A stretch of 64,000 nucleotides of DNA from Blasia pusilla (GCA_050084515.1 CM114271.1:18662001-18726000); one strand, 5' to 3'. Positions 1,663 to 54,952 are shown, counted from the stretch's first letter. Notes: a model not told the origin generated them from the letters alone. Program-made: numbers and translations.

Positions 1663-2245
1663 TGTCGTGCGAATCCACATCATCATACAACATACATCGC
1701 TGACATACCATACTCACATACATACATAACATAGACGAGAGCATCCACAAACACAAGTGTACCACAACTGAAATCCGTGGAAGACCTATTGTCATAAAAC
1801 ACGAATAGAATCACATACAATCGAGCCAAACCCAATCCACGATGGGAGAATCCAAGTCGAAGCTTGCGGGAACCACCATAGCCAAGAGCTCTACTCACTA
1901 CCAAGGCTAACTCCCAACGCAGCAGGCTCAACTCAAAGAACTAACTGTTCTTTGAGTGCACTCCACACTATATCCTCCAACTTAAGAGCGGGCCCTACTA
2001 GAAAAGTCACCCTCAACTGAGTAACCCCCAACCCTATGTATGAAACCGCATTTCTACCTGGACACCACGGCCCTACATAAGGTATGGCCTCTACAAGCAC
2101 ACTAAACTCTACAAAATAATCCGTATGGTCATGACAATTGCCGTACGAATCCATATCGTCATACAACATACATCGCTGATATACCATACTCACATACATA
2201 CATAACATAGACGAGAGCATCCACAAACACAAGTGTACCACAACT
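1663..2245 (-). repeat. A1 3' terminal repeat block: Y (1663-1769) + X (1769-2136) + AT spacer + Y' (2139-2245)
   Basis: 1663-1769 is repeated at 2139-2245; 1769-2136 is repeated at 11120-11487. Confidence 0.92.
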
Positions 2246-2256
2246 CGCCCCCTAAC
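2246..2256 (-). other. Polypurine-tract-like sequence (sense TTAGGGGGCG) immediately upstream of y
   Basis: Plus strand CGCCCCCTAA abuts Y'; the same is seen at 24661 (A2) and 54780 (A3), with GTCCCCCT at 45583 (C). Confidence 0.65.
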
Positions 2257-2416
2257 TGGCGGTTAGATCCCTCTAACTCCCAGGTAGCCCTATACATCTA
2301 CTACATGCTATACACCTTTGTGGGTGCACGAATTAGAAGGCCGGATGCTAGGTTGCCCCATCGTTAGTCGCATATCTGTAATCCATATCATGCAAAGTTC
2401 AAGTCATGTACCTCTC

Positions 2417-5400
2417 CTAAGTACATCGAGGACAAACCCACCTTCCAGTAGGAACAACATCCATACATGGAGTCAAACACATCATGTGCCAACCCCTAGA
2501 ACACCGATCACACACCAAAATACGGACTACGTTACCAACAGACCCACACAACATGAACCTCAAACTAGCACGTATCATGGCTAAGCTTGGGTCAACAGTA
2601 CCATCCACATTTGGAAGATGACATGACGCACAATTACGCATATGGTCCTTCCAAACAACTCCATCACGACCCTCCAACATGAGAACTCCAGAAGCTAACA
2701 ACTCGCGCACTCATAAAATAGTGCGGCCTGCTGTCACATCCAACGTTGTTGATGCAATCTGCTGCAAATAGACATAGTCCCCCACATGGAACCTACAAAT
2801 TGATGGTCGATAACCTCCATCCCAAATAGTTGCATACCGTAAAGTATCCCTGTGTTGAGCAATGGCAAGATTCTCAAAGGTTGTTGGCATAACTCTCCGA
2901 AAGAGCTCTGCCCGCTGAGAACACACTCTTATCCACATCTCTGGATCATCAAGGTTCACCACCTCACTAGACTCCCAAAAAATTGTTGTTGGCAAGTCTG
3001 GATCTCGGCCGTACAACAGAAAATAAGGTGAGAAGGAAGCCAAGGATGCTTGGCGATTGAACCTATACCCAATGGCTAACCATGGCAACTGAATATCCCA
3101 GTCTCCAAGATGCCCCTTCTGTAGGCCATACTTGCGCAATGCCCTCTTCATCGTCTGAACCACATGCTCAGCCAAACCATCCGCTTCTGGATGATCTTGA
3201 GACGTGGTCCGATGATCAATCAACGCCTTGTCACACAAGACCTGAAACTCACCCTGAAACTCTGTATCGTGGTCGGTCAGCACTTTTGCTGGTGCACCAA
3301 AATGACTAAGCACTCTATCAAGAAACGCATATGCCATTCCCTCACTTGCCTTGTCAGGTAATGCCACCAAATCAATCCACTTGGAGAAGTGCTCCACCAT
3401 CACCAACACATATCGATGATGTCGTACAGTCAACGGTAACGGTCCCGCAAAGTCCACACTCCAACGGTAACCCAACCCCATAATAGCCAAGGGGTGTAAT
3501 TGTGGTGTAGGGGCATTGAATGATGCCCTCACCTGGTCACAAACCATACAATGTGACGCCAACTGCTGCAACTGAGTATGCATGCCACGCCACCAATACT
3601 CACCAAGGAGTAAGCTATACGTATGCTTTACCCCAAAATGTCCCAACTCCTCATGGGCATGTCGCACAATGCGCTCTCTTTGAGCCAAATGGGGCACGAC
3701 TTGTACTCTACCATCCTCCCACACACGTAGAATATGTGTTCCCTCCAATCGATACCTCTTAGCACGTTGAAGAACACGGTCTCGCTCCTTGGCACTCACT
3801 ATGTCTCGCACCCTACTCGTCCGTAGGAACTCCAACACCAACGCATCATCATGAATATCACGCTGATCTGTACCACCATCTCCAACCTTAGGATCAGAAG
3901 GCTGACCATCTACCCTCTGACTAGAGTAAGATGTCATGTGGTCCTCCATACTAGAGTCCACCCCTAACCAACATAAAAAGGCACATGCATGCCAACCTGG
4001 CACCATCTCCTCATCAACCTTGCCATGCCACCTAGCCCCAGTTGCATCCTCTTGGCTAGTACATGGGTTCCTACTCAACCCATCAGCATCAAGGTTGGCA
4101 ACTCCAGGTCTATGTACCACCTGGAAGTCATACTCCTATAAGATAAAAGCCCACCGTGCAAGCTTCCCTGTAAGCTTGTCAGACTCCATCAACCACTTGA
4201 GCGGCTGGTGATCAGTAACAAGGGTAAATTTTGTGCCAAACAAGTAACACCTAAAGTGTGCCACAGCCCACACTACTGCCAAGCACTCTCCCTCATATGA
4301 ACTATAGCGCGACTCCGCTGCATCATTCGAACGACTTGCATAGGCCACCAAAAACTCCATATGCTCATCATCATGTTGTGTCAACGCCGCTCCAAGTCCC
4401 AACCTACTCCAATCAGTGTGTAACTGAAATGGGCGCCCTCTGATAGGTCTCCTCAAGATAGGCGCCGTCACCAATTGGGCTTTGAGCTCCACAAAAGCTC
4501 TCTCATGATCATCTCCCCAGTGCCACTCCTGATCTGATTTCAGAAATTGGTTCAAAGGCTTTGCCATAGCACTAAATCCCTTCACATACCTCCGATAGTA
4601 GTTCGCCAATCGCATGAATGCCCGAACTCTACTCACATCTACCGGACGAGGAATAAGTGCAATAGCATCCACCTTTGCTTGCTGAACTCCCAAACCACCT
4701 AGATAGATCACATGACCCAAGTACTCAACATCCTCATGGAAGAACTTACACTTTCCTCGATACAAATATAGACCATGAGCTTTCAACCGCTCAAACACAA
4801 TCTGCAAATGTATCTGATGCTCCTCCACCGTGTTACTGAATACCAAGATATTATCAATGTAACACCCAACAAAATCCAACTCTGCTAGGATCCTCTCCAT
4901 CACTCTCTAAAACTCGGCATGTGCATTCTTCAACCCAAAGGGTAAGAACTTCCACTGGTACAAACAATCTTTGCCATGAGAGTTGACACCCCAAAATGTT
5001 GTCTTGGCCTTGTCACTCTCTCGAATTGGCAACTGATGGTATCCTGCCCGAAGATCCAAAGTACTAAAAATATTTGCCTGTCCCACCACATCAAAGATCT
5101 CCTCAGTTGTAGGCATGGCATACCTATCGGCCTTGGTCTGCCGATTGATAAGACGCTAATCTCCACACATCCGCCTATCCGTGTAGTTGCCATGCATATC
5201 CTTTTTAGCAGGCATGACAGTGGCTGATGGATACTCTCCATGCGACAACTCCACTAATCCAGCCTCCAAAAGGTCCAACGTCCTACTCAGAATCAGGTCC
5301 TTCTCCATATCACTATATCGGTAGGGACGATAGAAGATTGGCGAATCACTAGCCAAATCAATGCGTATACCGGGTCCAACCAAAGCACCCAACTCCTTCA

Positions 5401-8400
5401 TGCTAAAGGCAAAACAACTCCTATAAGCACGTAGGAATTGTGTCAAGCGTCGTTTCTCACCTCCCCTAAGCTTGGGCCCAAGTAATGGCTCCCAAGTCTC
5501 CTCCACTAGTACACTAGAGGGAGAGGACGACACCATTGGCTGTTATGCAACCCCCTCACAAGATGGTACACCCTTAGCTACACCATCATCTGAGCAAATA
5601 ACTCCTCCACCAGCATGAGCAACCAACTCCACATGCCTAGCCATTACATCTCATTTACTCCAAGATGCAGAATACTATTCTCCTCGCCCCTAGCCGATGT
5701 CTCTACCATCCGGGTAACCATCGAGCTCATCACAAGGGATGGAAGACCCATAGACATAGTCCAAAGTTGACGCTCCTCGACCATCCCAAGACTCAAAATC
5801 CACGTCAAACAATTCAAGTCCATGGCCTGACCCAACACATGACATCGTGAAGCCACAGAAATGGAAGCAACCGTTGTCACACCAGTAGCAAATCCCATCA
5901 CACGCTCTCTCTCATCAGCGTTACGCTCCACCAACTGTCGCACATGAGAATCCCATACAAGCCTGGGACCACCTTCCTTGTAGGCATGTGACGAGGGAAA
6001 ACTCACAAATGTGGGTAGTGCCATCCTAGGCTGGCCCACACAGTTCATCACTGCCATGGGTGACCGATCAATAACCCTCACCACCTGAGAAAGTCGCCCA
6101 GTATCCAAGATACTATCCACCGTAAGGCAAGGATCCCGCTGCACTGCATCATATGTTGGACGTAGAACCTCCCTAGGCAACAAGTTTGTCCACCACAAGC
6201 GTGGACGATGTCCACGCGAGCCAACTCGCGCTGCATCCAACAACACCGCTGGTCCAATCCAAGACCGCACCTCATGAACACTCGCCATCATCCGGGTCCG
6301 ATTGTCACCCAACAATGGCACATTCTCCAAATGTAAGCTGGAGCACGTGCTTGATGAACCTGAAGATGTCATAACACCCGTAACATCTCCCAAAACAATC
6401 GAGACCTAGGGTCGTGTAATCCCTCACCACGACCAACACATGTATGACCCTCACATGGCCATCCAACAATCACCAAATCCACAGGACCAACCCTCTCAAG
6501 GTCTTGCGCCACCAACAATACAATGTGTGACGGCAAAGCACGCTGGTACCCACGAATAGCTTATGGCGGCAAAAACTCATGATATTTCCACATCAACTGA
6601 CCAATATGTCGAGATGAGACTCTCGGGGCCGTCTCATCTTGCTCCACTTACACTTATCTCTGCACAGGAATACCGGCCTGCAACACTGCAGCCAAACCAG
6701 TGCTAATCCCACCAAAGAGATCTAACACACAAATGCCCTCCGGTGGATACTGCCATATAATGGGTGTAGTATCCAAAGGGGATTATGCAACTGGACCAGA
6801 AGTAGGAGTCCGCGGTGGGGCCTCCTCTTCCTCGTGAGGTATAACAGCCTCACACCAAGCCTCCTACACTAGGCGATCAGCCTCCTACCGTAGTGCACCG
6901 CCTGAACTCCAAAGTGGCACATCCAACGATAAGGATGCCACTACTGCAAAACTAGGGACCTCCTCTATCTCCTCATGCACAGGGGAATCCATAGCATAAA
7001 GATTACCCTCCAAAAAGTCTCATGCCCAAGTGACTACTCCACTAAAACCAGCCACAGATGCTAACACCGTTGGAGAAGACCCTCCTGGTCGAGCCCCATG
7101 AATAAATCTCATAGGAACCTGGCTCATACGTCCATCCCCGGACTGCCAACCAGGTCTATGAGACGTTGTCTCAGTCCAATAGTCCATCTGAAAACCCATC
7201 GGGTACAATACTGCTCCTCCAACTAGTACATCATACGACTCGGCTGATGTGACCACTGTAGGTACTCCCAACCGTGCTCTATCAGTCGCATGATCTGGTC
7301 TCAAGTGTACAGACAACTTCTCCCGTGTCATGAATTGAGACCTATCATTGGCTCCTCCAAGTGATGTTTGAATCTAGAATGGGCAAGACTCAAGCTCTAA
7401 CCTCCGAATACCCAAACCAATACATGCCGCCTTTCCCAACATCAAAGGTTGGGCACCAGAGTCTAACAAGACTCTATCAGGTCTATACACCTGTCCTGTA
7501 GGACTCACCAATCGGAATATCCCACTTTGGTTGTCCAACATACATACACCAAGTGTAAGCCTCTCACGATCAATGGCTGGCCGGGCTGCTAATGCATCCA
7601 TCTTCGCCGTTGCTACCTGCCAAGTAGCACTGGTACTCAATGCTACATCTGACATAGAGGGTCGCTCCACCGCAACACCCTCATCCACCTCAGCACGTGT
7701 AGCAGTAACACCCCCACGTTCATACAACATACTTGCTAGCTGAAATACAGGAGCTAAGTTAACTCCTAAAGCCATCAGATCCGTGGCCAAAACAATGGGG
7801 ATCCCAACACTGAAGTTGCCATCCGCAATACTGCACTGGATGCTACATCCGTGTATACTACACGCAATGTAGATGCCTCAATACCCACTGTAGGCTCAAT
7901 AGGTTGCGTAGGAACCATGGATGGAGTCCTAAGCACCTCAGACAACAAGAATGACTGGGGAAACCTAGCCTGCCTCCCAGCCTTACCCCTCTCTGGGTCC
8001 AACTCCACAGTAGCATCACGTGGCTCTGACGCTCGAGTGGCTCCTCTCGTAACTCCAACTGATGCCTCAACCTGTGCTACACTCGCCAGATAAGAGAGAT
8101 CATCCCCTCCATAAGAGGTGGAAGCCCCTGCTCCCAAACCTGCTCTATGCTGGATACCAGCCATAGTAGCCAACTTCTGCTTTAAGTGCTCAATCCTGGC
8201 AGCCATAGCTGACTCTGTCGTAGTGGTAGGGGTAGCCACCGTAGGCTCTCCAACCACTGGTCCACCTCTACCACCCCTACCACCTCTACCAACTAGGCCT
8301 CTCGGAGCTACTCCACCACGGCCGCGGCCTAATCTCAACTCTGGATGAAGATCAAAGCAACGCTCTCGAGGATGACCTGGTCTCCCGTAATGATCACATT

Positions 8401-9600
8401 GAGTTGGGGCCGAGTGAGGCCCATCCTCCAAAGTCCGTCTCCCATCCTCTTGGGGACAAAACCTCCTAACATGATCACCTCCACATGTCCAACATGACTG
8501 TCCTTGCTGCGGGGCAGCAAATGAAGGCAATGGTCTCTGGGCAAGTGTCCCTCTATGACCTAATTGAGGTCGTGTGTACCCCCCACGACTCCCACTACTA
8601 CTACCACTACCATTACTACGAGACTGTGAGGTGGACTGCTGAACATGAGAAGTAGTAGTTGTATCCCTACTGAATGCGGATGTCACCACTCTCTCCTCCA
8701 TCATGTTAAGCTCAATCTTCTCAGATCGAGCAAACACATGGGTCAATATGGGTGAATCATCACTCATAAGAGTAGCATCACGTATCCTGTGGCGCAACTC
8801 TTTTCCAAGATCCCCTACCAAAGCTGGACTACATGAGCCTGAGTCACACCATGGGTAACTGAAATCAAGCGTCGCATACGAGTGTATGCCTCACGAAGAC
8901 TCTCACCAGTCTTTCGCTCAAATTCCTGAAGACTCCTCAACTTCTCTCTCTTCACTCCTTGATAGTTCTTCTTCAACCTCTTGAAGAACTCTGCAACCAG
9001 GCTTAACGATGGTGGGGCACGAGTACCTCCACTAGTACCCCCACTGGTACCCCCACTCCGGCTCGTACTCGTACCACTCAACGTCGGGTTGGTTGGCATA
9101 GTAGGAGCACTACTACCAATACCACCATGGATGATAGACACCTAGCCTGAAGACCAATATTGTCTCCACGCCTCAATCTCAGCAACATGGTCCTTCCTAA
9201 ACTCATGGTAATCATCCATGGGTGGTCCCTCCAAGTGCTGAAACAACCCCTTCTAAGCCAAGAAGGGTGTAAACAACGTGGCGTTCCGAAATATCTATAT
9301 ATCACACCACGTATCAAAATCCTGAATGAAGTCCTCCAACTCAATGGTGCCCACTACACCCAAGTATCGTCGTGGGCCCTTCATGGCCCCATATATCCTG
9401 TCGATGTCCCGAATCAATGGAGCTGCAACACTCGATAACAACGTAGAAGACTCGGTGTTTGGAACACCCTCGTCCTCCTCTTCATCAACCGTCGGAAGTG
9501 GAAAAGGTAGCCAATACCTCAATCAACTCCGTGTAAAACCACCACTATCCGCACCACCGTCCCCAACCAGACCAACAAATAGCTCCGTGATGACCAACGC
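2417..9600 (-). pseudogene. A1 gag-pol: gag (~8300-9600), protease (~7150-7540), DNMT (~5790-6745), RT (~4560-5350), RNase H (~4130-4460), integrase (~2711-3700), PHD (2417-2560); multiple stops
   Basis: Motifs CWTCGGDHVRRFC, LLDSGAQP, LPFGLKNA, CYIDNILVFS, FQLHTDWS..GLGA, TDHQPLKWL, HEELGH..C..C, WSVDFAGP, ADGLAE and C4HC3 PHD are spread over split ORFs. Confidence 0.92.
5790..6745 (-). pseudogene. C5-cytosine DNA methyltransferase domain (DNMT3-like) within A1 pol
   Basis: Motif I VLDLFGGIS (~6705-6735), motif IV DLVIVGWPCEG (~6445-6482), motif VI LENVP, motif VIII HRPRLWWTNL, motifs IX-X ERERVMGF...VLGQAMD. Confidence 0.88.
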
Positions 9601-11108
9601 CAATGCCGCACCACCACCAAATCACCACCACTAAGTAACCAAGTGACGTCGATGTCGCTGTACTATTCTAGCTCTACTAGTTATGGGTGTAGGAAACCTA
9701 ACCTATCATCACCACAAGAAGCCTCCCACGGTCTACTGGTCATCACTCCAACCTCACTACCAGTAGCACACAGGAGTAAAACTATTCTGGAAATCAGCGT
9801 CAACCCTAACAATGGGCGCGCAAGCAAGAAGCAATGATGGAGGGGATCCAAACACAGGAAGTCCAACGACAACCCTCCAATCGCAAATGGAAATCAAGGT
9901 AACACAATCCACCAAACATGGCGCCCCCTGAATCTACAGAATCCACCACACAATTCTAACGCAATAGCTACTCTGCCGTTGGTCGATGACGTGCTACTCG
10001 CACTCGCAGTCCCTGAAAATATCACCTGCGTGGAGAGGCTACACCGTACTTTGTGCTAGAGATCCATCAACCAAAAACCCAAGATGCATAAAGCACCTAA
10101 CACATCTCCAAACAGCACCAAATGAGCTACACCAGTGTGTACACTAGCATAGTTAAGAACGCAGCAGTTAAGCGTCTTCCAGGCAGAATAGCCCAAAGAT
10201 GGGTGACCAGTTATGCAACACTCAACTCACAAATCCTGGATAAACTGCCTCACGCCCAAGCAGCCAAGCTTGCTTGCTTGCTCCTTGGTCCTAAATCCGC
10301 CTCTCACGCCCACTTGCCCCGAGCTACCACGAGTTGCCTCGAAACCTCGAAACGCCGAGAAATGCTCGGGACACGCCCCATTCGCCACGCTTTGCCATAC
10401 TTTGCTATGGAGAGAGGCCCAACGAGGGTGCCCCCAACGGGATAGGCATCTCCAAAAACGGACGAATCACCAACCAACCAGCCCCTCCGATCTGTTGTCC
10501 ACCATAGCCAGACCTTGAGCTAGTCCACTAAATTTAGATCAGCAATTACTCCACAAATCCTCAACCAAAAGTGAATCTGTTTAACCAGAATTCAATTGGC
10601 CACCATAGCTATCTCTCCACAAACAATCGGCTCCAACCTAGTTTTGTACTCCGAGTTAAAAAACAGACAAACTTGTTGTCCATACACCTCCAGAATCGCA
10701 AATCCGACAGCGCTTCCGCCCACACTCATGCACACAAAAATCCGCAACACTCCACAAACTCAAGCAGATAGCTTCACATGAGATCAAAATACAGGTAGCA
10801 ACAAGAACCTCTTACCCAATCTGGATGAACTTCAAAAGAGCTTCCGCACTCCAAGCTCTCCACATCACAAAACCGTCGAACATGAACCAGAATCTTCAAT
10901 CCTTGATAACTTCCAACTTCCTTAACAAAATCCGGCGATCTAAAGCGCGTTGGAAAGCTCTCATCAAGGCACTTCTTTTCCAATCAACCATGCACCAGAT
11001 TCATACCTCCAACATAGGCCACAAGCCACGATCATCCACGGCTGAGTACACAATCAGCCCTAACCAGATCGTACTGATCCACGATCGAAGCTACCATCGA
11101 TCTACTCT

Positions 11109-11119
11109 AGTTCTTTGAG
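11109..11119 (-). other. Non-tRNA primer-binding-site position of A1 (sense CTCAAAGAACT), putative self-priming site
   Basis: Lies directly after the 5' x repeat and is complementary to sense AGTTCTTTGAG inside x (plus 1932-1942; 11283-11293 has one mismatch). Confidence 0.7.
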
Positions 11120-11487
11120 TGAAATTCGTGGAAGACCTACTATCATAAAACACACATAGAATCACATACAATCGAGCCAAATCCAATCTATGATGGGAGA
11201 ATCCAGATCGAAGCTTGCGGGAACCACCATAGCCAAGGGCTCTACTCACTACCAAGGCTAACTCCCAACACAACAGGCTCAACCCAAAGAACTAACTGTT
11301 CTTTGAGTGCACTCCACACTATATCCTCTAACCTAAGAGCGAGCCCTACTGAAAAAGTCATCCTCAGTTGAGTAACCCCCAACCCTATGTATGAAACCGC
11401 ATCTCTACCTGGACACTACGGCCCTACATAAGGTATGGCCTCTGCTAGCACACTATACTCTACAACATAATACATATGGTCATGATA
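11120..11487 (-). repeat. A1 5' terminal repeat x (LTR-like, ~368 bp)
   Basis: Direct repeat of 1769-2136. Confidence 0.92.
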
Positions 11488-13385
11488 TGGGCTCCACCAC
11501 ATGACCAACAAGTAATAGTAGGCGGCGGCTGCTGAGCCGCATATGAAGGCGCAGGTCTTTGTGGCACGGCCTCCTGGTATCCTCCGTGAGCTCGTGGTGC
11601 CATAGTCGACATATCTCGGAGTCCACGTTGCTGCACAGGTGGTGTAGACAGTCGCGACTGGTCTCGCCCAGAACCCATGGTGGCTACGCTCTCCTCCGCC
11701 ATGTTGCGCTCAATGTTCTCGGTTGTCCTAAAATCATCTCTCAATGTAGGGGAGGTATTCATAAGAAGCACCCCCTCCCGCACCCGTATCCGTAGGGTCC
11801 GGTCCAGCGACGAGTGACGTTGATCAACCGGCGCAAGCGAGTGTAAGCCTCACGCAAACTCTCACTCTGGCGCCTCTGAAAGTCATGGATGCTCCGCAAT
11901 TTCTCCGTCCGTACCCCTTGGTAGCTCGCCCTCAACTCAACAGAGAACTCAACCACAGGGTTGAACTTGGGACGAACACGACTAGACGGTGCAAGTACTC
12001 CCGTGCAAGTGACCCCTACTAAAACGTCACTAGTGGAAGAGGAAGTAGCCTCTCCTGACTCCTCCTACTCCTCATCTAGGAACGGCTCCGTCCATGACAC
12101 ATAATGTGGGTCATAGTAGACCCTCCACGTCTCGATCTCACGTGCATATCTCTGAGAGAACTCATGGTAATCGTCCATGGGCGCCCCCTCTAAATGCTAG
12201 AACATACCGTTCCATGTTGTAAACGGGTTGAATTCTCTAGAGTTCTTGACCCTCTGGGAGTCGCACCAACTCCTAAAATCTGCTATGAAATCGTGTAACT
12301 CAATCGTGCCTACTACACCTAAAAACCTACGCGGTCCTCTACCCCGGTCATCCATCTCGTACGCCCAAGTGGTAGGACCACTCACAATGTATGGCGATGT
12401 GCTCACAAACTCCTCTACATCCTCCCCCTTGTCTGACGATGACAAAAAAGGAGGTCGAGGTGGTCCCTCACATGGACACCCTCGGAATCTCGCGCCACTC
12501 CGTGTAAAACCTGTAGAGCTACTCTTGGGTTCACCACCTCGCCTCTCAAAGTCCCGAACGGACTCCATGATGACCCTTGTGTTCCTCTCACCCGATCACT
12601 CTAAACCTCGTGAGTAATCCCTCAATCACTCATCCCAAACATGCGGCACTGGATCTACACTCTCCCTCTCCGCAACGTGTAACGTGCGGCAACACGCGGC
12701 GTGGTGCGGAAAATCGACTAGGCTATCATCTCATCGACAACCTACCCTCAACTCTGGACATCCCAAACAGGTCTATGTCCCCTAAACCACACACATAAAT
12801 GATGTTCTCAGCATCCACACAACCCAATATCCCCAAATAAACTACCCAAATCCCATAATCCCTCACGCGTGCAGGATAAAGGACCAGAATGGGTAACCTC
12901 AACATATGTCGATGTCGCTCCTCAGCAACTCCAAATCTCGACCCCAACTCGGTCATGGAGACAACTCCTCCAATCAGCAAGTCATCCTCCTCCCGTACAA
13001 ATGTTGCTCAAAACCCCTCGATAGACAGTGCGGTTTCACCGGAACGGTGCGGCGTTGCAGGCGGCACGGAACGGCTACGAACAGCACGGCCTTCGATGGT
13101 AGGATGCGGCACTCAAGAGCATACCCTCCTCAATCAGCAATAAACCCACACTCTGCTCCACAATGATGGTGCGGCTCCGTGATCGAGACGGTGCGGTGTG
13201 GCCACGAGCGGCACGGTGCGGCAATCGGCGGCGCGTTGCGGCTACGGGCGTCACGGCACGGTACTCGATCGTCGTTGAATGGCTACCAATCACAACATAG
13301 CAACATGAAATCAAAGCTCAAACACCATAACCGGAGGTCATCTACCATCATAGGTTGATGACGAAATTGTGATGGCGGCTGGGCC
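11488..13385 (-). mobile_element. Family-B element B1, right part (gag N-terminus and 5' leader), 5'-truncated
   Basis: Colinear with B2 20431-22350; ORF 12197-12568 reads GPRRFLGVVGTIELHDFIADFRSWCD; no x repeat follows. Confidence 0.87.
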
Positions 13386-13433: not shown

Positions 13434-14207
13434 TGTCGTGCACATACACATCGGTACACAACATACATCGCTCTCATCAAACACACACACAAACACACAC
13501 GATCCCATGCTAACTCATGGCATCCATACACAGAGGCGAGAAGTACCAAAATATCTCCAATAAAATAAGATCAAATCTCTCTGTACACCATCTCACACCA
13601 TAGCTCTCAAAGGTGCACGTGTACTCTCCCTCATGTCGAACCAAACCCACTCTCCTAATGAGAGGCTTGGGTTACACTCACAATGCAAGAAACCATAGCT
13701 CGGCCGCCTCATGCCAAGAGGTTCAACAAAGAGAGAATGAGCTCTCAAGCTCCCTCTCTTGGAGGTATACCCCTTTCCCTCTCCCAAGCCCTCTCAACGG
13801 TAACCTATGCTCGCAGGTCACCTCCTTGTCTCTTGACCTACTATAGCGGGTCAAGGGCCACTTTCCAAAGTAGAAAGTCAACTATCCCCAACATGGAAAC
13901 TTACCCTAATAGTAAGTTTCTCTATATGGCTCCAAATGAGCCGAAACGAAGGGGAAACCTGCTCTCTCAAGTTTCCCGGGGCGTCAGCAGGTCATTCTCG
14001 ACCTCCTGGGCCTGTCCTCCACTACTTGTGAAGATGCTTTGCTAGATCCTACCCATCTATTCTAACAGTCGTGACAATTGTCGTGCGCATACACATCGCT
14101 ATACAACATATATCGTTGTCATCGAACACACACACAAACACACACGATCCCATGCTAGCTCATGGCATCCATACATAGAGGCGAGAAGTACCAAAATATC
14201 TCCAATA
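13434..14207 (-). repeat. B2 3' terminal block: Y (13434-13562) + X (13561-14076) + AT + Y' (14079-14207)
   Basis: Y is repeated after GTGACA-AT-TGTCG; X is repeated at 23160-23649. Confidence 0.92.
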
Positions 14208-14384
14208 GCTGGTGGTTAGGTCCCTCTAACTCCAGATAGCCATATATCCCTACCTACCATGACATACATATCTAGGACGCTAAGAGCAGAAAGGCCAGAT
14301 GCTCATGGGGCCCCATCGTAAGTCACCTTCCTCTCATCCATGTCACAGAAAAATTCGGAATCAAAATCTACCTAGTATCTCCTC

Positions 14385-17300
14385 TATGTACATCTGGGAC
14401 ACATCCATCATCCCTGAGGAACCCTAGTGAGAGGTGGTGTCAGACATGCCATATGCCAACCTCTCGAACATCCATCATAGACTAGGATCGTGGCCGCACC
14501 ACGGGCAGAACCACACAACATACAACGCAAGTTTGCAGGAACTACTGCTAAGCTCAGATCTATTGTACCATCAGTGTTAGGAAGGTGACATGGCGCACAA
14601 TTACGCACATGGTCCTTCCATATCATACCATTGCGTCTCTCTAGCAAGAGAACACAAAATGGCAAAACGTCACGCACTCTCAAGATAGTGCACCCTGCAG
14701 TCACATCCAACGTCGTCGGTGCCGTTTGCTGCAAGTAGACATAATCTCCCTGATGAAACCTCCGGATAGTTGGTCGATAACCACCATCCCAAATAGTCGC
14801 ATATCTCAACGTATCCCGATACTGCGCAATCGCCAAGTTCTCGAATGCCATGGGCATCTCTCTCCAAAACAACTCAGCATTTTGAGAACATGCTCGCATC
14901 CATACATCTGGGTCATTAAGGTCCAGGACCTCACTAGCATCTCGACAAATGGCCGCAGGTAAATTTGGCTCTCGGCCATAAAGTAGCAAGTACGGTGAAA
15001 AAGACGCTAAGGATGTCTGCCTGCTGAATCTGTATCCCATCGCCAACCACCGCAACTGGAGGTCCCAATCTCCTAGGTGACCTCTCTGCAAGCCATACTT
15101 GGGTAAACCCCTCTTCACCGTTTGCACAACTCTCTCCGCTAATCCATCCACCTCAGGATGATCTCGTGAAGTCGTGCAGTGGTCGATCAACGCATGATCA
15201 CACAAGGTGTGGAACTCACCGCAAAACTCGATACCCTGGTCTGTCAACACCTCAGCCCGTGCCCTGTAATGACTCAGTACTCGATCTAGAAGGCATACGC
15301 TACTCCCTCACTCGCTTTGTCAGGAAATGCAACCAACTCGATCCACTTCGAGAAGTGCTCAACCATCACCAACACATAAAGACTGTGACGCTCCATCAAA
15401 GGCAAAGGTCTTGCAAAATCCAAACCCCATCTATACCCTCAGCCCATGATCGGTAATGGATGCAGCTGTGGAGTCCAAGCATTGAACGATGCTCGGACCC
15501 GATCACACATCATGCACCTGGCAACAAACTGCTGAACGTTAGTCTGCATGCCTCGCCACCAATACTGAATCTAGAGCAAGCTGTACGTCCGCTTCACCCC
15601 AAAGTGACCCAACTCCTCATGGGCATGCTGCACTAGTCGTGCTCTCTGCGAAGGATGCGGCACTACGTGTACTCTACCATCCTCCCAAACCCTCAAAACA
15701 TGTGTCCCCTCCCAACGGAACCGTCTGGCCCTCTCGATCCGATCCCGCTCTCTAGCACCTACGGTGCTCGCATCGCTGCCGGTACGAAGGTACTCCAAGA
15801 CTACTCTATCATTATGAATATCTCGGCCACATGTCGTCTCCTCATTGGCCTCGGGATCCAAGGACTCTCCACTAGACCTCGCCATCGAAGTCTCCACACT
15901 CTGGCTCTCCATAGCCAACATGCCTAAATAGGCTAACGCATGCCATCTTGGCACTGACTCCTCATCACTCTCTCTATGCCATCGAGCTCCAGTCGCATCT
16001 TTCTGACTCGGGCATGGGTTACCACTCAACCCATCTGCATCTTGGTTGAGCGTCCCAAGTCTATGTACCACCTGAAAATCATACTCCTGCAACAACGGAG
16101 CCCATCTCGCAAGCTTCCCTCTAAGATTGTCGGACTCCATCAACCACTTCAGTGGTTGATGATCAGTGATGATGGTAAAGGGATTGCCGAATAAGTAACA
16201 CCTGAAATGCGCGACAGTCCACATTGCAGCCAAGCACTCACCCTCATACGAGCTGTACTTTGCCTCTGCAGCGTTGTTCGAGCGACTAACGTAAGCTACC
16301 ACGAACTCTCTACCCTCATCATCATGTTGGGTGAGCACCGCTCCAAGCCCCAACATGCTCCAATCTGTGTGCAACTGGAAAGGACGCACCCTGATCAGTC
16401 TCCTCAAGATGGGCGCGGACGTCAACCTATCCTTGAGCAACTGAAATGCTCGCTCTTGCTCATCTCCTAGTGCCACTCGTGATCCATCTTGGTCAACAAG
16501 GTTAGCGGCTTTGCAATCGAACTGAATCCCTTGACGTACCGACGATAGAAGTTTTCCAATCCCATGAATGCGCGAACACGGCTCACATCTGTAGGGCATG
16601 GAATGCGTGAGATAGCCTCTACCTTTGTCTGCTAAACACCAAGGCCCCTTGGGTATATTGTATGACCCAAGTACTCAATCTGGTCGTAGAAGAACCTGCA
16701 CTTGCTTGGATGTAGCTTCAGCCCATGTAAATGCAATCGTCGAAACACCTCCTCTAGATGTCGCTCATGCTCCTCAATCGTGGCGCTAAAGACTATGATG
16801 TCATCAATAAAACACCAAGCAAAATCCATACCAGCCAAGATCCTATCCAAAACTCTATGAAACTCAGCCGCGGCGTTTTGTAACCCAAATGGTAAGAACT
16901 GCCACTGGTACAACCAATCCTTCCCGTGAGGATCGATGCCCCAAAATGCCGTCTTCTGCCTGTCCTCCAATCTGATTGGCATTTGCTGGTATCCGACTCG
17001 CAAATTCAATGAACTGAAGACGTTTGCGTGACCAATCGCATCAAAGATCTCCTCAAGGGTGGGCATGGCATACCTATCGGACTTTGTCTACCGATTGATA
17101 GGTCGGTAATCCCCACACATCCGCCTATTCGTCCAGTTTCCATGCACATCCTTCTTGGCGGGCATGACAGTGGCAGATGCATACTCCCCATGCGATATCT
17201 CCACTAGTCCTACTCCGACCAAGTTCTAGCTCCTACTCTGAATCAGAGCCCTCTCCATATCACTGTACCTGTAGGGTCGTCGAAAGATTGGCGTATCACT

Positions 17301-20300
17301 CGACAACTCAATGTGGATGCCCAGTCCCTTCAACGTACCCAAATCCTCCATGCTAAATGCAAAGTAGCTCCTATAACTCCTGAGGAACTGATGTATCCGG
17401 CGTCGCTCTCCTCTTGTCAACTTAGGGCCCATATTTGGCTTCCAAGTCTCCATTGTGACTACGGTAGGACTCTCCGGCGCGGGTATTGGTGGATGCTATG
17501 GTGCAATCCCATCTCAAACAACAACACTCGGCCGCTCTCCTGCAGCCAACTGCAAACTCTGATCTCCTCCATGTGCAGTGCCCAAAACCACGCTCGATGC
17601 TCTGGCTATCATCTCTTGGCGTACCTGCAAAACATCCCAAGAAGTCCAAGGGTGTCTCTCCCAATCTCCCCTGGTATGTAGATCTCCTCGAGTCTCGCCC
17701 CCAGCCACTGCCTCCACCGTCTTGGTAGGCATGGGGCTCACCAACGCAACCGTTGTGATCTGTCGCGATCTCCTACGACGTTGCTCAGCCACTTTCAAGT
17801 TGAGGATGGATGTCAAGCAATTCAGGTCCATTGCCTGACCCAAGACATGGCGTCGTGATGCCTCTGACACTGACGGTACTGTCGTCATTCCTATGGGAAA
17901 TCCCATCGCTCGCTCTCTCTCATCGGCGTTGGGCTCCACCAACCGTTGAACCTGGTCATCCCAAGCCAAGCAAGGACCGGCCTCCTTGTATGCATAGGAA
18001 GCGAGAAAACTCACAAACGTGGGCAAGGCTGCCCGCGGCCTGCCTACCGTGTTGACCATAGTCAACAGTGGTCGATTGTGCCTCACTGCCTGTGATCGAC
18101 GACTTGGATCTAGAATGGAATCCACTAACAAATGGGAGGGACGATCCACTCTCGCATACGCCCTCCGTAACACCGCGTGGGGCACCAAGTTGGTCCACCA
18201 TAGACGCGGGCAATGGGCTCTAGAACCTACACTCCCCCACATCCAAGAGCACTGTTGGGCCAATCCAGGCACGCACCTGGTGAGCAATCGTCACTACCCG
18301 TGCCCCGAGTCTCCTAATATCGCACATTCTCCAGAATGTAGGCTGGAGAATGAGACTGGTGCTCGTGCAACTTCTGTAAGACCCTCAACATCTCCCAAAA
18401 CAACCTGGACTGAGTGTCAGCCAATCCGCTGCCTCATCCAGCACTCGATTGGCCCTTACATGGCCAACCGGCAATGACCAAATCAATGGTTCCTACCCGC
18501 TCTAAGTCCTGTGCCCCCAACAACGAAATATCCCTCTGTAGGGAACTTTAATTTGGTACCCCTGTACCGCGGACGCAGAAATAAGTCGGGAAAACGTAGG
18601 CGTAACTGTGCCACATATCGTAGTGAGATGCGCCTTGCAACATCATCACTCTCCACATACAGGTACTGATGTACTGGCACTCATGGGTGCAAAACAACAG
18701 CTAACCGGGTTCTAATCCCTCCAAAGAGATCTAACACTCGAATACCCTTCTCCGAGGTACACCACACAATGGGTGTGGTATCCAAAGGTGTCATCGTAGC
18801 ACTTCATGCTACCTAGAGTTCCTCAGACCCGTCACGCTCCGGTGCAAAAGCCTCGCTCCACGCGGTCTGCACGTGTTCCTCTGCCAATCGTCAAAGCTCC
18901 TCAGTCGAGCCCCACAACAGCACCTCTCCTCCACGGAATGATGCGGCTACCATAACACTTCTCTCCATAGAAATTTCAGGAACGGGAATATCCTCTGGAT
19001 GGACATGGTCCTCAATCAAATCACTAGGCCAAGTGATGGCACTGCTAAATGGTGCTAAGGTCGCCATCTCTCCTGGCCGTTGGTCAATCACTGCACCTCT
19101 GAATCGAGCGGGTAATGAGCTTAGGCGCCCATCACCTGACTGCCATCCTAGTTTATAGGACACTGACCCCTCCTAATAATCCAGGGCAAACCCCATCGGG
19201 TATAACACTCATCCACCAACCAAGACGTCGTAGGACTTTGCATCAGTCACTATCGCCTTGGCTCACACCACGGACTCATCTGTAGGATGTCTCGGGCGAA
19301 TCCACACCACGACCTCCTCTCGGGTGATATAATGTGTGGTACTCACTCCATCCAAGGATGTCCGTATCCGGAATGGACAACGCTCCACATTGGCTCTCGT
19401 GAAGCCTAGTCCTCTGAATGACGCTTTCCCCAACATCAGGGGTTGCGCTCCTGAATCCAAAAGGACTAGCAGCCGCAGCGTGCCATGAATTTGACGTGCA
19501 CGGCCTGAGCATCTGCTCCAAGGGCAGGTCCATTACCTCCTTTGCAATCACCTCTGAATGTGATGCAGGAACTCCAAATCCACGCTCACATAGCATAGTG
19601 GCTAGCCAAAATGCCTCGGCGGACGTACCCCCCAACGTCATAACATCGGAAGCAGAAAATAAAGGAGTGCGGTACACAATGGTGGCTGCCCCCAACAACG
19701 TGATCGACATATGCCCCTCTTGAGTATCAAAAATAGGAGTCGTCGCACTTGCTTCTCCCATCGCCCTCCGTGCGTGCACACCAACAACATTACCAACTCT
19801 CCAGGAACTTTGATCAGGACCCATCGATGGGGTCCTCATCGCCTCGGACAACGTGATAGTTGAGGAAACCTAGTCTATTTGGTGGCTTCCCCTCATTGTG
19901 GATCCAACTCTGCGGCTGCTCCATGCGTCATGACTACGGCTTCCTCCATGTGGGCAACCCCGCACATCCAACCAGGATCCTCCATATCTCTGGCTGCTCC
20001 ATATAATGTCGATGCCACGGATCCGACATCGGGTAATCTCAATGCCATAGCGGCAATATGCTCCTGTAGCTGATGTATCTGAGCAGCCATCCTAGCCTCA
20101 CGCCCGACATCTCCCTTGACGTGTCTAGGTGGTGGGACTCTACCTCCTCCACGGGCAGCTCCACCACCCTGCCGGGCAACTCCAGTTCCTCGTCTCCCAA
20201 CGGGACCGCCAGGTGCACGATCTCTAGGCCCACCCGGACCGGCTACTTGCTCTGGTGCCCTCTCTGGCCCTCGGTCCGGACGTAACTCAGGATGTAAAAT

Positions 20301-21550
20301 GAAACACTTGGCGCGTGTATGACCATACCTCTGACAATAGTCACACTCATAACCTCCTGGTGTAGCACCATCTCCTCCTCCATGTTGAGTCATACATCCA
20401 TGACCCTGACAAGTGCAATCGCGCTGATGATGGGCTCCACCACATGACCAACAAGTAATAGTAGGCAGCTGCTGCTGAGCCGCATATGAAGGCGCAAATC
20501 TCTGTGGCACGGCCTCCTGGTATTCCACCTAAGCTCGTGGTGCCACAGCCGACCTATCTCGGAGTCCACGTTGCTGCACATGTAGTGCAGACAATCGTGA
20601 CTGCTCTCGCCCAGAACCCATGGTGGCTACGCTCTCCTCCGCCATGTTGCGCTCAATGTTCTCGGAGGTCCTAAAAATATCTCTCAATGTAGGGGAGGTG
20701 TTCATAAGAAGCACCCCTCCCGCACCCATGACCGCAGGGTCCGGTCCAGCATCGCGTACCATGACTGGATAGCCTGAGCCTCTGTCACCCCCTGAGTGAC
20801 GTTGATCAACCGGCGCAAGCGAGTGTAAGCCTCACGCAAACTCTCACCCTGGCACCTCTAGAAATCGTGGATGCTCCGCAACTTCTCTGTCCGTACCCCC
20901 AGGTAGCTCGCCCTCAACTCAGCAAAGAACTCAACCACAAGGTTGAACCTAAGACGCACCTGACTAGACGGTGCAACTGCTCCCATGTGAGTGACCCCTC
21001 CAAAAACGTCACTAGTGGAAGAGGAAGTAGCCTCTTCTGACTCCTCCTCCTCATCTAGGAACGGCTCCGTCTATGACACATAGTGTGGGTCATAGTAGAG
21101 TCGCCATGCCTCAATCTCTTGGGCATATATGTGGGAGAACTCATGGTAATCATCCATGGGTGCCTCCTCTAAATGCTGGAGCATACCATTCCATGTTGTA
21201 AATGGGTTGAACTCTGTAGAGTTCCTAGCCCGCTATGAGTCACACCAACTCCTAAACTCCGCAATGAAGTCGTGTAGCTCTATGGTGCCTACAGCACCCA
21301 AAAACCTACGCGGTCCTCTACCTCGGTCGTCCATCTCATACGCCCAACTAGTAGGACCACTCAATGTGTACGGTGGATCACTAACAAACTCCTCTACACG
21401 CTCCCCTTCGTCTGAAGACGACACAAAAGGAGATCGAGGTGGTCTTTCACTTGGAGATCCTCGAAACCTCGCATCACTACGGGTAAACCCTCTAGAGCTA
21501 CTCTCAGGTCCACTACCTTGCCTCTCAAAATCCTAAAAGGACGCCGTGAG
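14385..21550 (-). pseudogene. B2 gag-pol with DNMT (~17800-18745) and C-terminal PHD (~14390-14525)
   Basis: CWSCGGAHHQRDC and CDYCQRYGHTRAKC knuckles, DSGAQP, VIAGWPCKG (~18455-18480), SRAHCPRLWWTN, LGQAMD, CFIDDIIVFS, LHTDWSMLGLGA, CMLCGS..C..GWHMACL. Confidence 0.9.
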
Positions 21551-23144
21551 GGCCCTTGTGTCCCTCTCACCCGATCACTCTCAACCTCGCGAGTTATCCC
21601 TCAATCACTCATCCCAAACATGGGGCACTCGATCTACACTCTCCCTCTTCGAGACGTGTAACGTGCAGCAACAAGCGGCGTGGTGCGGCAAATCGACCAG
21701 GCTATCATCTCATCGACAACCTACTCTCAACTCCGGACATCCCACACAAGTCTATGTCCCCTAAACCACATACATAAATGATGCTCTTAGCATCCACACA
21801 CCCAATATCCCCAAATAAACTACCAAAATCCCAGAATCCCTCATGCGTGTAGGATAAAGGACCAGAATGGGTAACCTGAACTCATGTCGATGTCGCTCTT
21901 CAATAACTGCAAATCTCAACCCGAACTCGGTCATGGAGATAACTCCTCCAATCAGCAAGTCATAACCCTCCCATACAGACGCTGCTCAAAACTCTTCGGT
22001 TGACAGTGCGGAACGGTGCGGCGTTGCAGGCAGCACAGAACAGCTACGAACGGCACGGACCTCGATGGTGGGATGCGGCACTTGGCGGCATAACCTCCTC
22101 AATCAACAATAAACCCACACTCTGCTCCACAATGACAGTGCGGTTCCGTGATCGAGATGGTGCGGTGCGGCTAGAGCGGCACGGCGCGGAAATTGGCGGC
22201 GCGTTGCGGCTACGAGCGTCACGGCATGGTACTCGATCGTCGTCGAGCGGCTACCAATCACAACATAGCAGCATGAAATCAAAACTCAAACACCATAACC
22301 GGAGGTCATGTGCCATCACTTGTTGATGACAAAACTGTGATGACGGTGGCGGCCAAAAAAAAGTACGTGTTGGCAACGCAGGTCAGAGAATCAACGAACG
22401 TTGTGGAAGATCCTCCAATCCGTAACGGCGGCAATGGCAACCAAAGGGTGGACAACGGACCGTGGACCGTTGACGGTGACGGTTCATCGTTGATTGTGAT
22501 GGCCGACCGCTGAAGGTGATGGTTGACCATTGATGGTGAAATTTGACCATCGATGGTGGACGGTTCGCGATGACTATAACGGGGACGGTAGTTATCGGCA
22601 TGGCGGGTGGTTTAGGGTTTGAACAATTTAACCCTAAAAACCGCCTTGCAATGGCAATTTTGCAAGATTGACCATAACTTTTTGCTCGCAACTCCAAATT
22701 GCGTACTGTTTATTGCACAACGTGTACAGCTTCATGATCTACAACAACATTAAAAAATATTTGGAATTAGACATTCCAATAAAAATTATAGGGACTGTTG
22801 TAAATCCCAATGTCTCTTTCTCCGACACAAAATTTGGCAGCGCTTCCGCGCTAATTTCTCCCAACAAAAATGTAAAACCTATAAAAATACAAATCAGCAA
22901 GCTACATGGTGCTCTTGAGAGCATTGGCATGGGGAAATATGCCCCAATAATCAATCCCTATCAGAAATTGGGCAGCGCTTCCGCACGCCACTCTTCCATA
23001 CGAAAAATTGGCAAATGCAAAGAACAATCAAAGCAGCCCTTGCTCCGCTGAGCACTCCCATGAGCCGCTGAATGGGGAACATGGTCCCCAACGTGCAAAA
23101 ACAGCGAGTGACCAGTGGGCTCCCCCATGAAGCTCTCTCACTCT

Positions 23145-23160
23145 CTCATTCTCTCTTTGT
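23145..23160 (-). other. B2 PBS-position sequence (sense ACAAAGAGAGAATGAG), putative self-priming site
   Basis: Plus CTCATTCTCTCTTTGT is the exact reverse complement of ACAAAGAGAGAATGAG at 23319-23334 and 13726-13741 inside X. Confidence 0.72.
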
Positions 23161-23649
23161 AAAGTAAGATCAAATCTCTCTGTACACCATCTCACACCAT
23201 AGCTCTCAAAGGTGCACGTGCACTCTCCCTCATGTCAAACCAAACCCACTCTCCTAATGAGGGGCTTGGGTTACAATGCAAGGGACAATAGCTCGGCCAC
23301 CTCATGCCAAGAGGTTCAACAAAGAGAGAATGAGCTCTCAAGCTCCCTCACTTGGAGGTATACCCCCTTCCCTCTTCCAAGCCCTCTCAACGGTAACCTA
23401 TGCTCGCAGGTCACCTCCTTGGATCTTGACCTGCTATAGCGGGTGAAGGGCCACTTCCCAAAGTGGAAAGTCAACTATCCCTAACATGGAAAAATAACCG
23501 AAATAGTAAGTTTCTCAAACGAAGGGGAAACCTGCTCTCTTAGGTTTCCCGCGGCCTCAGCACGTCATTCTTGATCTCTTGGGCTTGTGCTCCACTATTT
23601 GTGAAGACGCTCTGCTAGATCCCACTGATCTATCCTAATAGTCGTGACA
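23160..23649 (-). repeat. B2 5' terminal repeat x (~490 bp)
   Basis: Direct repeat of 13561-14076, with small deletions. Confidence 0.9.
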
Positions 23650-24077
23650 GAGCGCACAACAATTGGGAGATGCGTGATGAGTTGCATTTCAGTGAGCATT
23701 CATGTTTGAGAGAGACAGATAGAGAGAGAAGGAGAGGGAAAGAGTGGGAATGTGCGGGCAAGAGGCTTTCAGATACATAAAAATATCCAAAGAGAATCTC
23801 AACTAAGTTTAAGTGGCAATAAGTGATTTTTATCCTTCATTGATAATTTCTCTAGAACAACATCAGTATACTTCTTGAAAGAAAAGTCACAAGTATTTCA
23901 CATGTTCCATGATTTCAAGATTCCGATTAAGAATTTTTTTGGATGTTGGGGAGAGAGGGAAAGGCCACTGTTCATTGCGCAACAAGTATTGAGTCCAGCT
24001 TCATCGCTACACTAGAGCTTATGTGATTACGGATGTAAGTGTCGATAAATGATATCAGAAAAACCAAGCAGAAAACG

Positions 24078-24660
24078 TGTCGTGCGAATCCACATCGTCA
24101 TACAACATACATCGCTGACATACCATACTCACATACGTACATAACATAGACAAGAGTATCCACAAATGCAAGTGTACCACAACTGAAATCTGTGAAAGAC
24201 CTACTGTCATAAAACACGTTTACAATCACATACAATCGAGCCAAACCCACTCCACGATGGGAGAATCTAGGTCGAAGCTTGTGGGAAACACCATAGCCAA
24301 GAGCTCTACTCACTACCAAGGCTAACTCCCAACGCAACAGGCTCAACTCAAAGAACTGACTGTTCTTTGAGTGCACTCCATCTTATATCCTCCAACCTAA
24401 GAGCGGGCCCTACTGGGAAACTCACCCCAAACTGAGTAACCCCCAACCCTATGTATGGAACCGCATCTCTACCAAGCCACTACGGTCCTACATAAGGAAT
24501 GGCCTCTACTAGCACACTATACTCTACGACATAATCCATATGGTCATGACAACTGTCGTGCGAATCCACATCGTCATACAACATACATTGCTGACATACC
24601 ATACTCACATACGTACATAACATAGACGAGAGTATCCACAAACGCAAGTGTACCACAACT
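24078..24660 (-). repeat. A2 3' terminal block: Y (24078-24184) + X (24184-24551) + AC + Y' (24554-24660)
   Basis: Same layout as A1. Confidence 0.93.
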
Positions 24661-24832
24661 CGCCCCCCTAATTGGCGGTTAGGTCCCTCTAACTCCCAGG
24701 TAGCCCTATACATCTACTACATGCTATACACCTTCTTGGGTGCCCGAATTAGAAGGCAGGGTGCTAGGTTGCCCCATCGTTAGTCGCACATGTGTAATCC
24801 ATATCATGCAAAGATCAAGTCATCTACCTCTC

Positions 24833-33957: not shown

Positions 33958-33975
33958 GCTCTCTCTCTCTCTCTA
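33958..33975 (+). repeat. (CT)n microsatellite
   Basis: CTCTCTCTCTCTCTCT run. Confidence 0.8.
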
Positions 33976-54779: not shown

Positions 54780-54952
54780 CGCCCCCCTAACTGGCGGTTA
54801 GGTCCCTCTAACTCCCAGGTAGCCCTATACATCTACTACATGCTAAACACCTTCTTGGATGCACGAATCAGAAGGCCGGGTGCTAGGTTGCCCAATCGTT
54901 AGTCGCCCATCTGTAATCCATATCATGCAAAGATCAAGTCATCTACCTCTCC

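Follow-up and report, generated by a model that had tools for sequence, protein, structure and literature searches.

Split direct repeats in integrase-bearing Ty3/Gypsy elements of Blasia pusilla and their relatives, and a possible route of integration through joined cDNA ends

Introduction

How does a retrotransposon with a DDE integrase come to be bounded by split direct repeats? Long terminal repeat (LTR) retrotransposons integrate, in the textbook view, linear complementary DNA (cDNA) by their LTR ends; circles are regarded as dead ends, and split direct repeats are taken as the mark of elements that use a tyrosine recombinase. The question is raised by a stretch of 64,000 nucleotides from Blasia pusilla (GCA_050084515.1 CM114271.1:18662001-18726000), here called the window, and in particular by the element A1, which occupies positions 1663-11487 on its minus strand. 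In sense orientation A1 consists of a sequence x, an internal region, a sequence y, two nucleotides (NN), x again and y again; the successive repeats are referred to as x1, y1, x2 and y2. Two identical LTRs, as expected of Ty3/Gypsy, are thus replaced by x alone at the 5′ end and by y-NN-x-y at the 3′ end. The original prediction, made from the sequence of the window, was that A1 and its neighbours are DDE-integrase Gypsy elements inserted in precisely this form and that they follow a non-canonical route of replication and integration. We find that the layout is a real, lineage-wide variant of Ty3/Gypsy and that the unusual step is most likely integration.

Layout and integrated form of the elements

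The order x - internal - y - NN - x - y is present in four complete minus-strand copies of the window (A1, A2, A3 and B2), and the same 3′ layout was found at one further 3′ end, D, which the original prediction had called C. All positions predicted for A1 hold, with an x pair 92 per cent identical, a y pair 95 per cent identical and a spacer of 2 nt, and the repeats could be placed in each of the other copies said to share its order (Table 1). A1, A2 and A3 form one family with an identical order, A2 being the youngest copy (x pair 97.8 per cent identical); B2 represents a second family (x of 490 and 516 nt, y of 129 nt) and D a third (x2 of 487 nt). A y beside x1 was looked for in the window copies and was found neither before nor after it, and y-x at both ends, the arrangement of conventional LTRs, was not seen in any copy.

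Relatives were sought by scanning metagenome contigs with an integrase alignment. This matched 600 stretches, of which 509 were confirmed and the best 80 (41–85 per cent identity) were taken; all counts of metagenome loci given here refer to these best 80 of 509. The arrangement y-NN-x-y lies downstream of the integrase in 24 loci, at least 22 of them distinct, and in four others a contig end or an insertion interrupts the arrangement. The shared layout reaches down to 41 per cent protein identity, and two further families (L040 and L025/L027) share the junction or the whole 3′ layout. The alternative arrangement, x-y-NN-x at the 5′ end, was found at none of 17 5′ ends. Two loci show other rearrangements: in L034 (3321-3602) the tail of x (177-339) stands immediately before y at the y1 position, as if a deletion had removed exactly one y-NN-x unit length, and in L038 (3699-3878) an inverted head of x follows x2.

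The boundaries of the inserted unit are marked by target duplications. A1 is flanked by TGGA/TGGG on the plus strand (1659-1662 and 11488-11491; CCCA/TCCA in sense), and exact 4-bp sense-strand duplications surround A2 (CGTT/CGTT), A3 (AACG/AACG) and B2 (GCTC/GCTC). The empty site of A1, with a single TGGR, is found in two uninterrupted relatives, B2 (near 20425) and a plus-strand copy (near 48250), and together with the duplication it defines the inserted unit as exactly 1663-11487. Six metagenome loci with y-NN-x-y extend as far as x1, again with 4-bp duplications around x...y (AAGG, AATC, ATTA/ACTA, ATGT, ACCT and TGAC). Altogether, duplications were observed around x...y in 13 of the 14 copies with both flanks readable, 11 exact and two (A1 and L066) with one mismatch each; the remaining copy, L067, has no target duplication. 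Since the duplications flank the whole x...y unit, this unit is the integrated form. In ten complete copies the x pair is 86–98 per cent and the y pair 92–97 per cent identical within a copy, and the two values vary in parallel, which indicates that the two pairs are as old as the insertion.

A dense nest of related and mostly co-oriented elements, such as the window contains, could suggest that the layout is secondary and results from tandem duplication, nested insertion or an assembly artefact. We regard this as very improbable. The empty site and the duplications delimit x...y exactly, the same order recurs in independent assemblies and in six or more families distinct in sequence, RNA reads traverse y1-NN-x2 (see below), and the x and y pairs of a copy are of similar age. 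The claim that we are dealing with the integrated form, and not with a later tandem duplication, is thereby borne out.

Encoded proteins and family membership

Pfam searches of the minus strand of A1 identified RVT_1, RT_RNaseH(_2), Integrase_H2C2 and rve in the order reverse transcriptase (RT) - RNase H - integrase, and the same pol order was obtained for A2, read through with stops as X, and for the metagenome copy L009. A PHD finger lies C-terminal to the integrase in A2 and L009, in the place of a chromodomain, which was found in neither; PF00628 is present in most homologues. Strings resembling CxxCxxxxHxxxxC, the pattern of a gag CCHC zinc knuckle, were seen by eye in the read-through translation of A2 and had no Pfam match. 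Homologous proteins of 831–2370 amino acids (aa) share these domains, and the named ones come from the green algae Klebsormidium, Haematococcus, Pleodorina, Tetrabaena and Volvox. Together with the rve core, the 4-bp duplications and the ends TGTCATG...CACGACA, these features place the elements in Ty3/Gypsy, in a green-lineage clade with a PHD finger at the C-terminus of the integrase, as the prediction of a DDE-integrase Gypsy identity required. All the copies examined have decayed, transitions making up most of the mismatches.

Many homologues also have a cytosine methyltransferase domain (PF00145). L009 gives a weak DNA_methylase match upstream of the RT (5627-6097; 20.4 bits, below the cut-off of 22), and no DNA methyltransferase (DNMT) match was obtained by Pfam in A2. 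DIRS elements likewise carry a methyltransferase-like domain, which constitutes a second parallel with DIRS.

The repeat order itself, A1-internal-B1A2B2 in the notation used for such repeats, is a hallmark of the PAT, Ngaro and TOC groups (PMC4157794), and one could imagine that the elements belong there and that their recombinase gene was missed. The probability of this is negligible in our view. No tyrosine recombinase (Phage_integrase) was detected at E≤0.01 in the three sense frames of the whole A2 internal region, with stops read as X, nor at E≤0.05 in ten scanned plus-strand open reading frames (ORFs) of L009, whereas a DDE integrase is present and both the 4-bp duplications and the TG...CA ends fit a DDE enzyme. 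PAT/Ngaro-type elements are not known to form a target duplication on integration.

Integration ends and signals for reverse transcription

The integration ends, TGTCATG at the start of x and CACGACA at the end of y, are conserved in all families, and where y1 meets x2 they are separated by 2 nt in all 30 junctions examined. The spacer is purine-pyrimidine, its variants being GC, AC, GT, AT and one AA, and with GC the junction becomes the perfect palindrome ACAGCTGT. At position 24552, where A2 has GT, GC is found in 218 of 387 first-mate-on-plus RNA reads. We considered that the spacer might be remade in each cycle and dropped the idea, as the variants fit decay from GC by transitions.

Signals for reverse transcription lie elsewhere. 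The sequence directly after x1, the presumed primer site, has an exact complement of at least 9 nt inside x in 12 of 17 copies, a match equalled in no more than 13 of 2000 shuffles in each case; in A2 the complement at this place is 8 nt long, and four decayed copies fail. Among families the primer site covaries with x and the pairing is kept (CTCAAAGAACT, CAAAGAGAGAATGAG, a 16-mer and TAGAAAAACTA), and that of B2, CAAAGAGAGAATGAG, can pair with x at position 316. The complement in group 2 falls about 25–30 nt past TATAAAAG and about 40 nt ahead of AATAA(G/A), and TATA-like boxes are found equally far from the complement in families A and B2. A G-run abuts the start of y1 as a purine tract in 25 of 26 aligned rows, as well as in D (CTAGGGGGACG) and L040. 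A hairpin that immediately precedes the start site in x was rejected as a functional signal; it occurs in family A and L009 and is absent from B2 and group 2.

These signals suggest that priming is probably self-priming of the Tf1 type and that reverse transcription looks conventional, with y-NN-x as the functional repeat. If reverse transcription is conventional and self-primed, the unusual step is most likely integration. The predicted non-canonical route would therefore have to be divided: the part concerning integration probably stands, with the ends abutted inside the repeat, and the part concerning reverse transcription probably does not, the signals fitting a conventional y-NN-x repeat.

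Transcripts

Three stranded RNA-seq runs were mapped on positions 23950-25250 of the window, the 3′ part of A2; their species label is that of the best-matching DNA sample. Sense depth in the three runs is 117–320 over the internal part, 93–173 over y1 and 112–208 over the head of x2, then drops along the tail of x2 to 0.7–18 over y2 and to 0 in the flank. Reads cross y1-NN-x2 unbroken. In one of the runs, X21, 20 reads connect the tail of x to the primer-site sequence; as the loose read ends spell this sequence, the coverage of the x tail derives from x1, that is, from the 5′ leader. One RNA contig spans from the primer-site side to x position 183, the start predicted for A2 being at 195, and this places the RNA 5′ end roughly. 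The expressed RNA thus consists of internal - y1 - NN - head of x2, with hardly any y2. If the packaged RNA also lacks y2, then y2 would have to be copied from y1, and the x2|y2 joint would be remade in every cycle.

Three further groups of reads were noted in this region. At 24230-24518, in x2 of A2, reads join x 322 back to x 34 (289 back; 18 reads, three runs, 12 start places, 4 nt shared), which could reflect either a family variant with a tandem duplication or a template switch. At 24610-24706, 13 reads skip 97 nt: 46 nt at the end of the internal region, which include the purine tract, and 51 nt at the beginning of y1; the same joint was also placed on y2. The skipped segment does not have GT-AG ends on the sense strand, and hence is probably a deletion variant among genomic copies. 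Finally, at 24660 and 24663, 42–110 reads per run pass from the end of an A internal region into a y of the B family (TTGGAGATATTT...), which indicates that B-type copies are transcribed too.

A candidate route of integration

The placement of the start site, the primer site and the purine tract, together with the extent of the RNA, allows the cDNA to be predicted. Transcription would start inside x1, about 25–30 nt past the TATA box, and the first 11 or so nucleotides of the RNA would pair with the primer site directly after x1. Plus-strand synthesis would be primed by the G-rich purine tract directly before y1, and the RNA would pass y1-NN and end somewhere inside x2. The expected product is a cDNA of the form (y-NN-x) - primer site - internal - purine tract - (y-NN-x). 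In such a molecule the integrase sites TGTCATG and CACGACA would lie inside the repeat, abutted in inverted orientation with a fixed 2-nt spacer, and the integrated copy would be a circular permutation of the expected cDNA.

Our preferred reading, to which we assign a probability of about one half, is that the cDNA ends are joined and that the integrase then opens the internal palindromic junction. The outer ends of the cDNA, the end of x and the start of y, would be joined as in a 2-LTR circle, through host end-joining or a template jump. In the left repeat, upstream of the primer site, the integrase would then nick each strand of the abutted junction behind its CA; with 2 nt of spacer between the nicks, the resulting 5′ overhangs would be 2 nt long, as on integrase substrates processed in the normal way. 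Insertion of the opened molecule with a 4-bp stagger would then give x-internal-y-NN-x-y, in which the old outer ends persist as x2|y2. In a stronger form, that the clade must integrate from end-joined, circle-type cDNA and that the inverted ends abutting within the LTR, 2 nt apart as at the circle junction of an insertion sequence, serve as its attachment site, the proposal is offered tentatively.

The x|y joint can be inspected for traces of such joining. It is mostly a clean abutment and its length is variable. Among the 14 rows of group 2 it reads CAAT+ATACATG in five, CAAT+ACATG in five, CAT+ATACATG in two and CAA+ATACATG in two; the joints of L070 and L074 are 2 nt short of the sum of their own x1 end and y1 start, that of L007 has a 22-nt loss with CCGA as filler, and that of L001 has one extra base. 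This variation has the appearance of end-joined circle junctions, short of proof. The idea that indels are restricted to the joint was ruled out by 20 indel runs in a 747-column alignment of 12 copies, and because indels also occur elsewhere the joint length variants are supportive only.

The same joints would also suit a different explanation, in which reverse transcription itself makes a linear x...y-NN-x-y cDNA by extra template switches, a pathway proposed for PAT/Ngaro-type elements, and the integrase acts on ordinary TG...CA ends. The length variants, including a 2-nt AT/AT overlap, fit a microhomology-guided template jump; the TG...CA ends, short inverted repeat and 4-bp duplication are those of a linear integrase substrate; and a directional pathway would account for the absence of the alternative permutation at the 5′ ends without any bias in cutting. 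Such a pathway needs, however, plus-strand synthesis to begin with the first base of x and minus-strand synthesis to begin past the final base of y. At neither point is there a purine tract or a sequence resembling a primer complement (y ends GATTCGCACGACA-NN), and the signals that can be recognised lie elsewhere: a G-run precedes y1, and the covarying primer site follows x1. With little RNA over y2, moreover, a jump without homology would still be required, from where x ends to where y begins. We consider extra template switching a serious contender and, on balance, a rather unlikely one.

Another possibility comes from copies with a single y. A single-y 3′ end was found in 20 metagenome loci (about 17 distinct), three of them with exact 4-bp duplications (TACA, TGTT and CCAA) and one, L067, with none. 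These copies could point to a Mu-like process in which the integrase nicks the outermost half-sites of a linear cDNA, on the left at the start of x and on the right at the end of y, and the flanks are trimmed to give x-internal-y, with y-NN-x-y arising from a minority of cDNAs with an extra right repeat. Against it, x-internal-y has no 3′ x for the next cycle and hence is not the propagating form, and all five readable 3′ ends in the window are y-NN-x-y. The single-y form comes only from short-read metagenome contigs, in which recombination between y1 and y2 or collapse during assembly could produce it. The locus L004 is a case in point: it is 99.4 per cent identical to L001 over 2713 nt up to the end of y, where the two diverge, L001 continuing into x-y and L004 into an unrelated flank. 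The y of L004 is y1-like on its 5′ side and y2-like on its 3′ side, so the locus appears to derive from an L001-like copy, either by y1/y2 recombination or through chimeric assembly. A Mu-like process accordingly seems to us quite improbable. The single-y form was also discarded as proof of integration from 1-LTR-type circles, as it is inseparable from y1/y2 recombination or assembly collapse.

Several points weigh against the opening of a joined cDNA as well. The cDNA intermediate, circular or linear, is deduced from sequence, and retroviral-type integrases normally act on linear ends. The weakest point is that a 2-LTR-type circle has two identical junctions, of which only one appears ever to be used: cutting the other would give x-y-NN-x-internal-y, the form seen at 0 of 17 5′ ends, and an unexplained bias is therefore needed. 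That indels are not restricted to the x|y joint has been mentioned, and some joint variants may be inherited within subfamilies. B2, the sole exception among the 26 aligned rows, has no G-run before y1. As to the transcript, its start and end are placed approximately, and there is no clear doubling of depth at the expected terminal redundancy. In X21 only, 29 molecules start at 24390 (x position 162), beside a depth of 114, which our preferred reading does not account for. Lastly, the copies examined are all decayed.

Position 24390 lies just before the TATA-like box, and the molecules beginning there may be polymerase chain reaction copies or may mark a genuine RNA 3′ end ahead of the presumed start.

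Comparison with known systems

The layout has appeared in print once. KnitGypsy-Dnmt3 of Klebsormidium nitens is described in a figure legend as a Gypsy element with 'the structure of repeats ... of a DIRS retrotransposon' (de Mendoza et al. 2018, PMC5890265, Fig. 4c). Like the elements of the window, it combines Gypsy domains with DIRS/PAT-like repeats, and the K. nitens protein P0024, with RT, RNase H, DNMT and integrase, is 46 per cent identical to the integrase ORF of the window over its full length. The account given with that figure contains neither duplications, signals nor a mechanism (PMC5890265), and a DNMT is not clearly present in the elements studied here. As regards novelty, therefore, the layout was already published, without analysis, whereas its signals, duplications and mechanism were not found in the literature searched.

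In Chlamydomonas reinhardtii, Gypsy-7a_cRei is reported to have a PHD finger in its Gag-Pol and a left LTR that lacks 8 bp present at the end of the right one (Craig et al. 2022, PMC9940879). From this description, the asymmetry is the same as that of an x1 without y, and Gypsy-7a_cRei may be a small-y version of the same layout. The extra piece is 8 bp there, compared with 97–181 bp in the present clade, and the element is described as active in laboratory strains, in contrast to the decayed copies studied here.

Split direct repeats are otherwise attributed in the literature to the recombinase elements PAT, Ngaro, VIPER and TOC (PMC4157794, PMC8557442). In these too the integrated copy is a permuted repeat-flanked unit. 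They differ from the present elements in encoding a tyrosine recombinase instead of a DDE integrase with TG...CA ends and 4-bp duplications. For Tf1/sushi self-priming has been described, and for plant Tcn1 and TAR it has been predicted (PMC6317226); in Tf1/sushi and Tcn1, as probably here, the primer site by the 5′ repeat is complementary to the element's own transcript start and not to a tRNA. Those elements have ordinary identical LTRs and a chromodomain, and the present ones a PHD finger.

Joined ends as integrase substrates also have precedents. Foamy-virus integrase is reported to cleave the palindromic LTR-LTR junction of 2-LTR circles (PMC1180852), and the same cleavage is reported for HIV-1 integrase (PMC1905944). 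As in the proposed route, a DDE integrase in these reports nicks abutted inverted ends in a circle to give processed linear ends. The retroviral junction is formed only at circularisation, as a side route, whereas in the present elements the repeat itself contains the abutted ends, which integration would always require as its substrate. In circle junctions of the IS3, IS30 and IS256 types, inverted ends abut with a spacer of a few base pairs and are cut by a DDE transposase for insertion. Unlike the present elements, these insertion sequences are bacterial, move as DNA without passing through RNA, and take their spacer from the donor flanks.

A search of the literature for split direct repeats together with gypsy gave no integrase-bearing Gypsy by title or beginning of the abstract, and a search on circle junctions gave, among the matches listed, retrovirus papers only. 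A 2026 preprint on adenine methyltransferases in retrotransposons leaves repeats unmentioned. The literature searched yielded no report of target duplications bounding x...y, of where the start site, primer site and purine tract lie, of ends abutting at a constant 2 nt, of the occurrence of the layout across many families, or of an interpretation as a permuted LTR.

Implications

A widespread green-lineage Gypsy clade thus has its integrase sites inside the repeat used for reverse transcription. If our preferred reading is true, a DDE integrase takes joined cDNA ends as its normal substrate, and split direct repeats would be a sign that a repeat-flanked circle was opened at an internal site, whichever enzyme is used. 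The clade would then be a living model for DIRS/PAT/Ngaro architectures arising from, or converging with, Gypsy. This bears on the old circle-junction model of retroviral integration, on the origin of DIRS, PAT and Ngaro elements and on the function of circular extrachromosomal retroelement DNA. Gypsy-7a_cRei, described as active in the laboratory, may serve as a direct test system. There is also a practical consequence: LTR finders that expect two identical repeats pair x1 with x2, so that the 3′ boundary is off by the length of y and the target duplication is missed.

Other features of the window

The copies and their parts are listed in Table 1.

Table 1. Positions of the split-repeat elements and their parts, counted from the first nucleotide of the window
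Feature	Position	Strand	Remarks
A1, whole integrated unit x1-internal-y1-NN-x2-y2	1663-11487	-	Delimited by repeats, empty-site comparison and duplication
A1 x1, 5′ repeat	11120-11487	-	Begins TATCATG (other copies TGTCATG); TATA-like box and presumed transcription start inside
A1 primer-binding site CTCAAAGAACT	11109-11119	-	Adjoins x1; complementary to x ~193-204
A1 pol remnants: RT end, RNase H, integrase zinc domain, DDE core	2711-4906	-	Pfam
A1 purine tract GTTAGGGGGCGA	2245-2256	-	Directly 5′ of y1
A1 y1, internal y copy	2139-2245	-	Ends CGGCA (other copies CACGACA)
A1 spacer AT between y end and x start	2137-2138	-	Abutted inverted ends form a quasi-palindrome
A1 x2	1770-2136	-	
A1 y2, terminal y copy	1663-1769	-	CACGACA at the 3′ end of the element
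A2	24078-33569	-	y2 24078-24184, x2 24185-24551, spacer 24552-24553, y1 24554-24660, x1 33202-33569
A3	54198-63962	-	y2 54198-54303, x2 54304-54670, spacer 54671-54672, y1 54673-54779, x1 63597-63962
B2, second family	13434-23649	-	y2 13434-13562, x2 13561-14076, spacer 14077-14078, y1 14079-14207, x1 23160-23649
D, third family, 3′ end	44808-45581	-	y2 44808-44952, x2 44953-45439, spacer 45440-45441, y1 45442-45581
B1, older B-type copy split by A1	1-1662 + 11488-13378	-	
B-like plus-strand copy	46634-54197	+	Target of A3; 3′ end outside the window

In the nest of elements that makes up the window, A1 lies in B1 and A3 in the plus-strand copy. In the stretch 33600-46700, no Pfam family was found in eight ORFs of at least 110 aa at 34991-42193. 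The part from 38000 to 46000 is A+T-rich (GC 0.39–0.42), and its five ORFs of at least 110 aa (39815-42193) have no Pfam match. GC skew is evenly and strongly negative (-0.17 to -0.28) at 1-34000 and 54000-64000, where the elements are on the minus strand, with the exception of a near-zero value at 22001-24000, and is positive over most of the plus-strand copy (48001-54000). The negative skew over minus-strand elements indicates that their sense strand is G- and T-rich.

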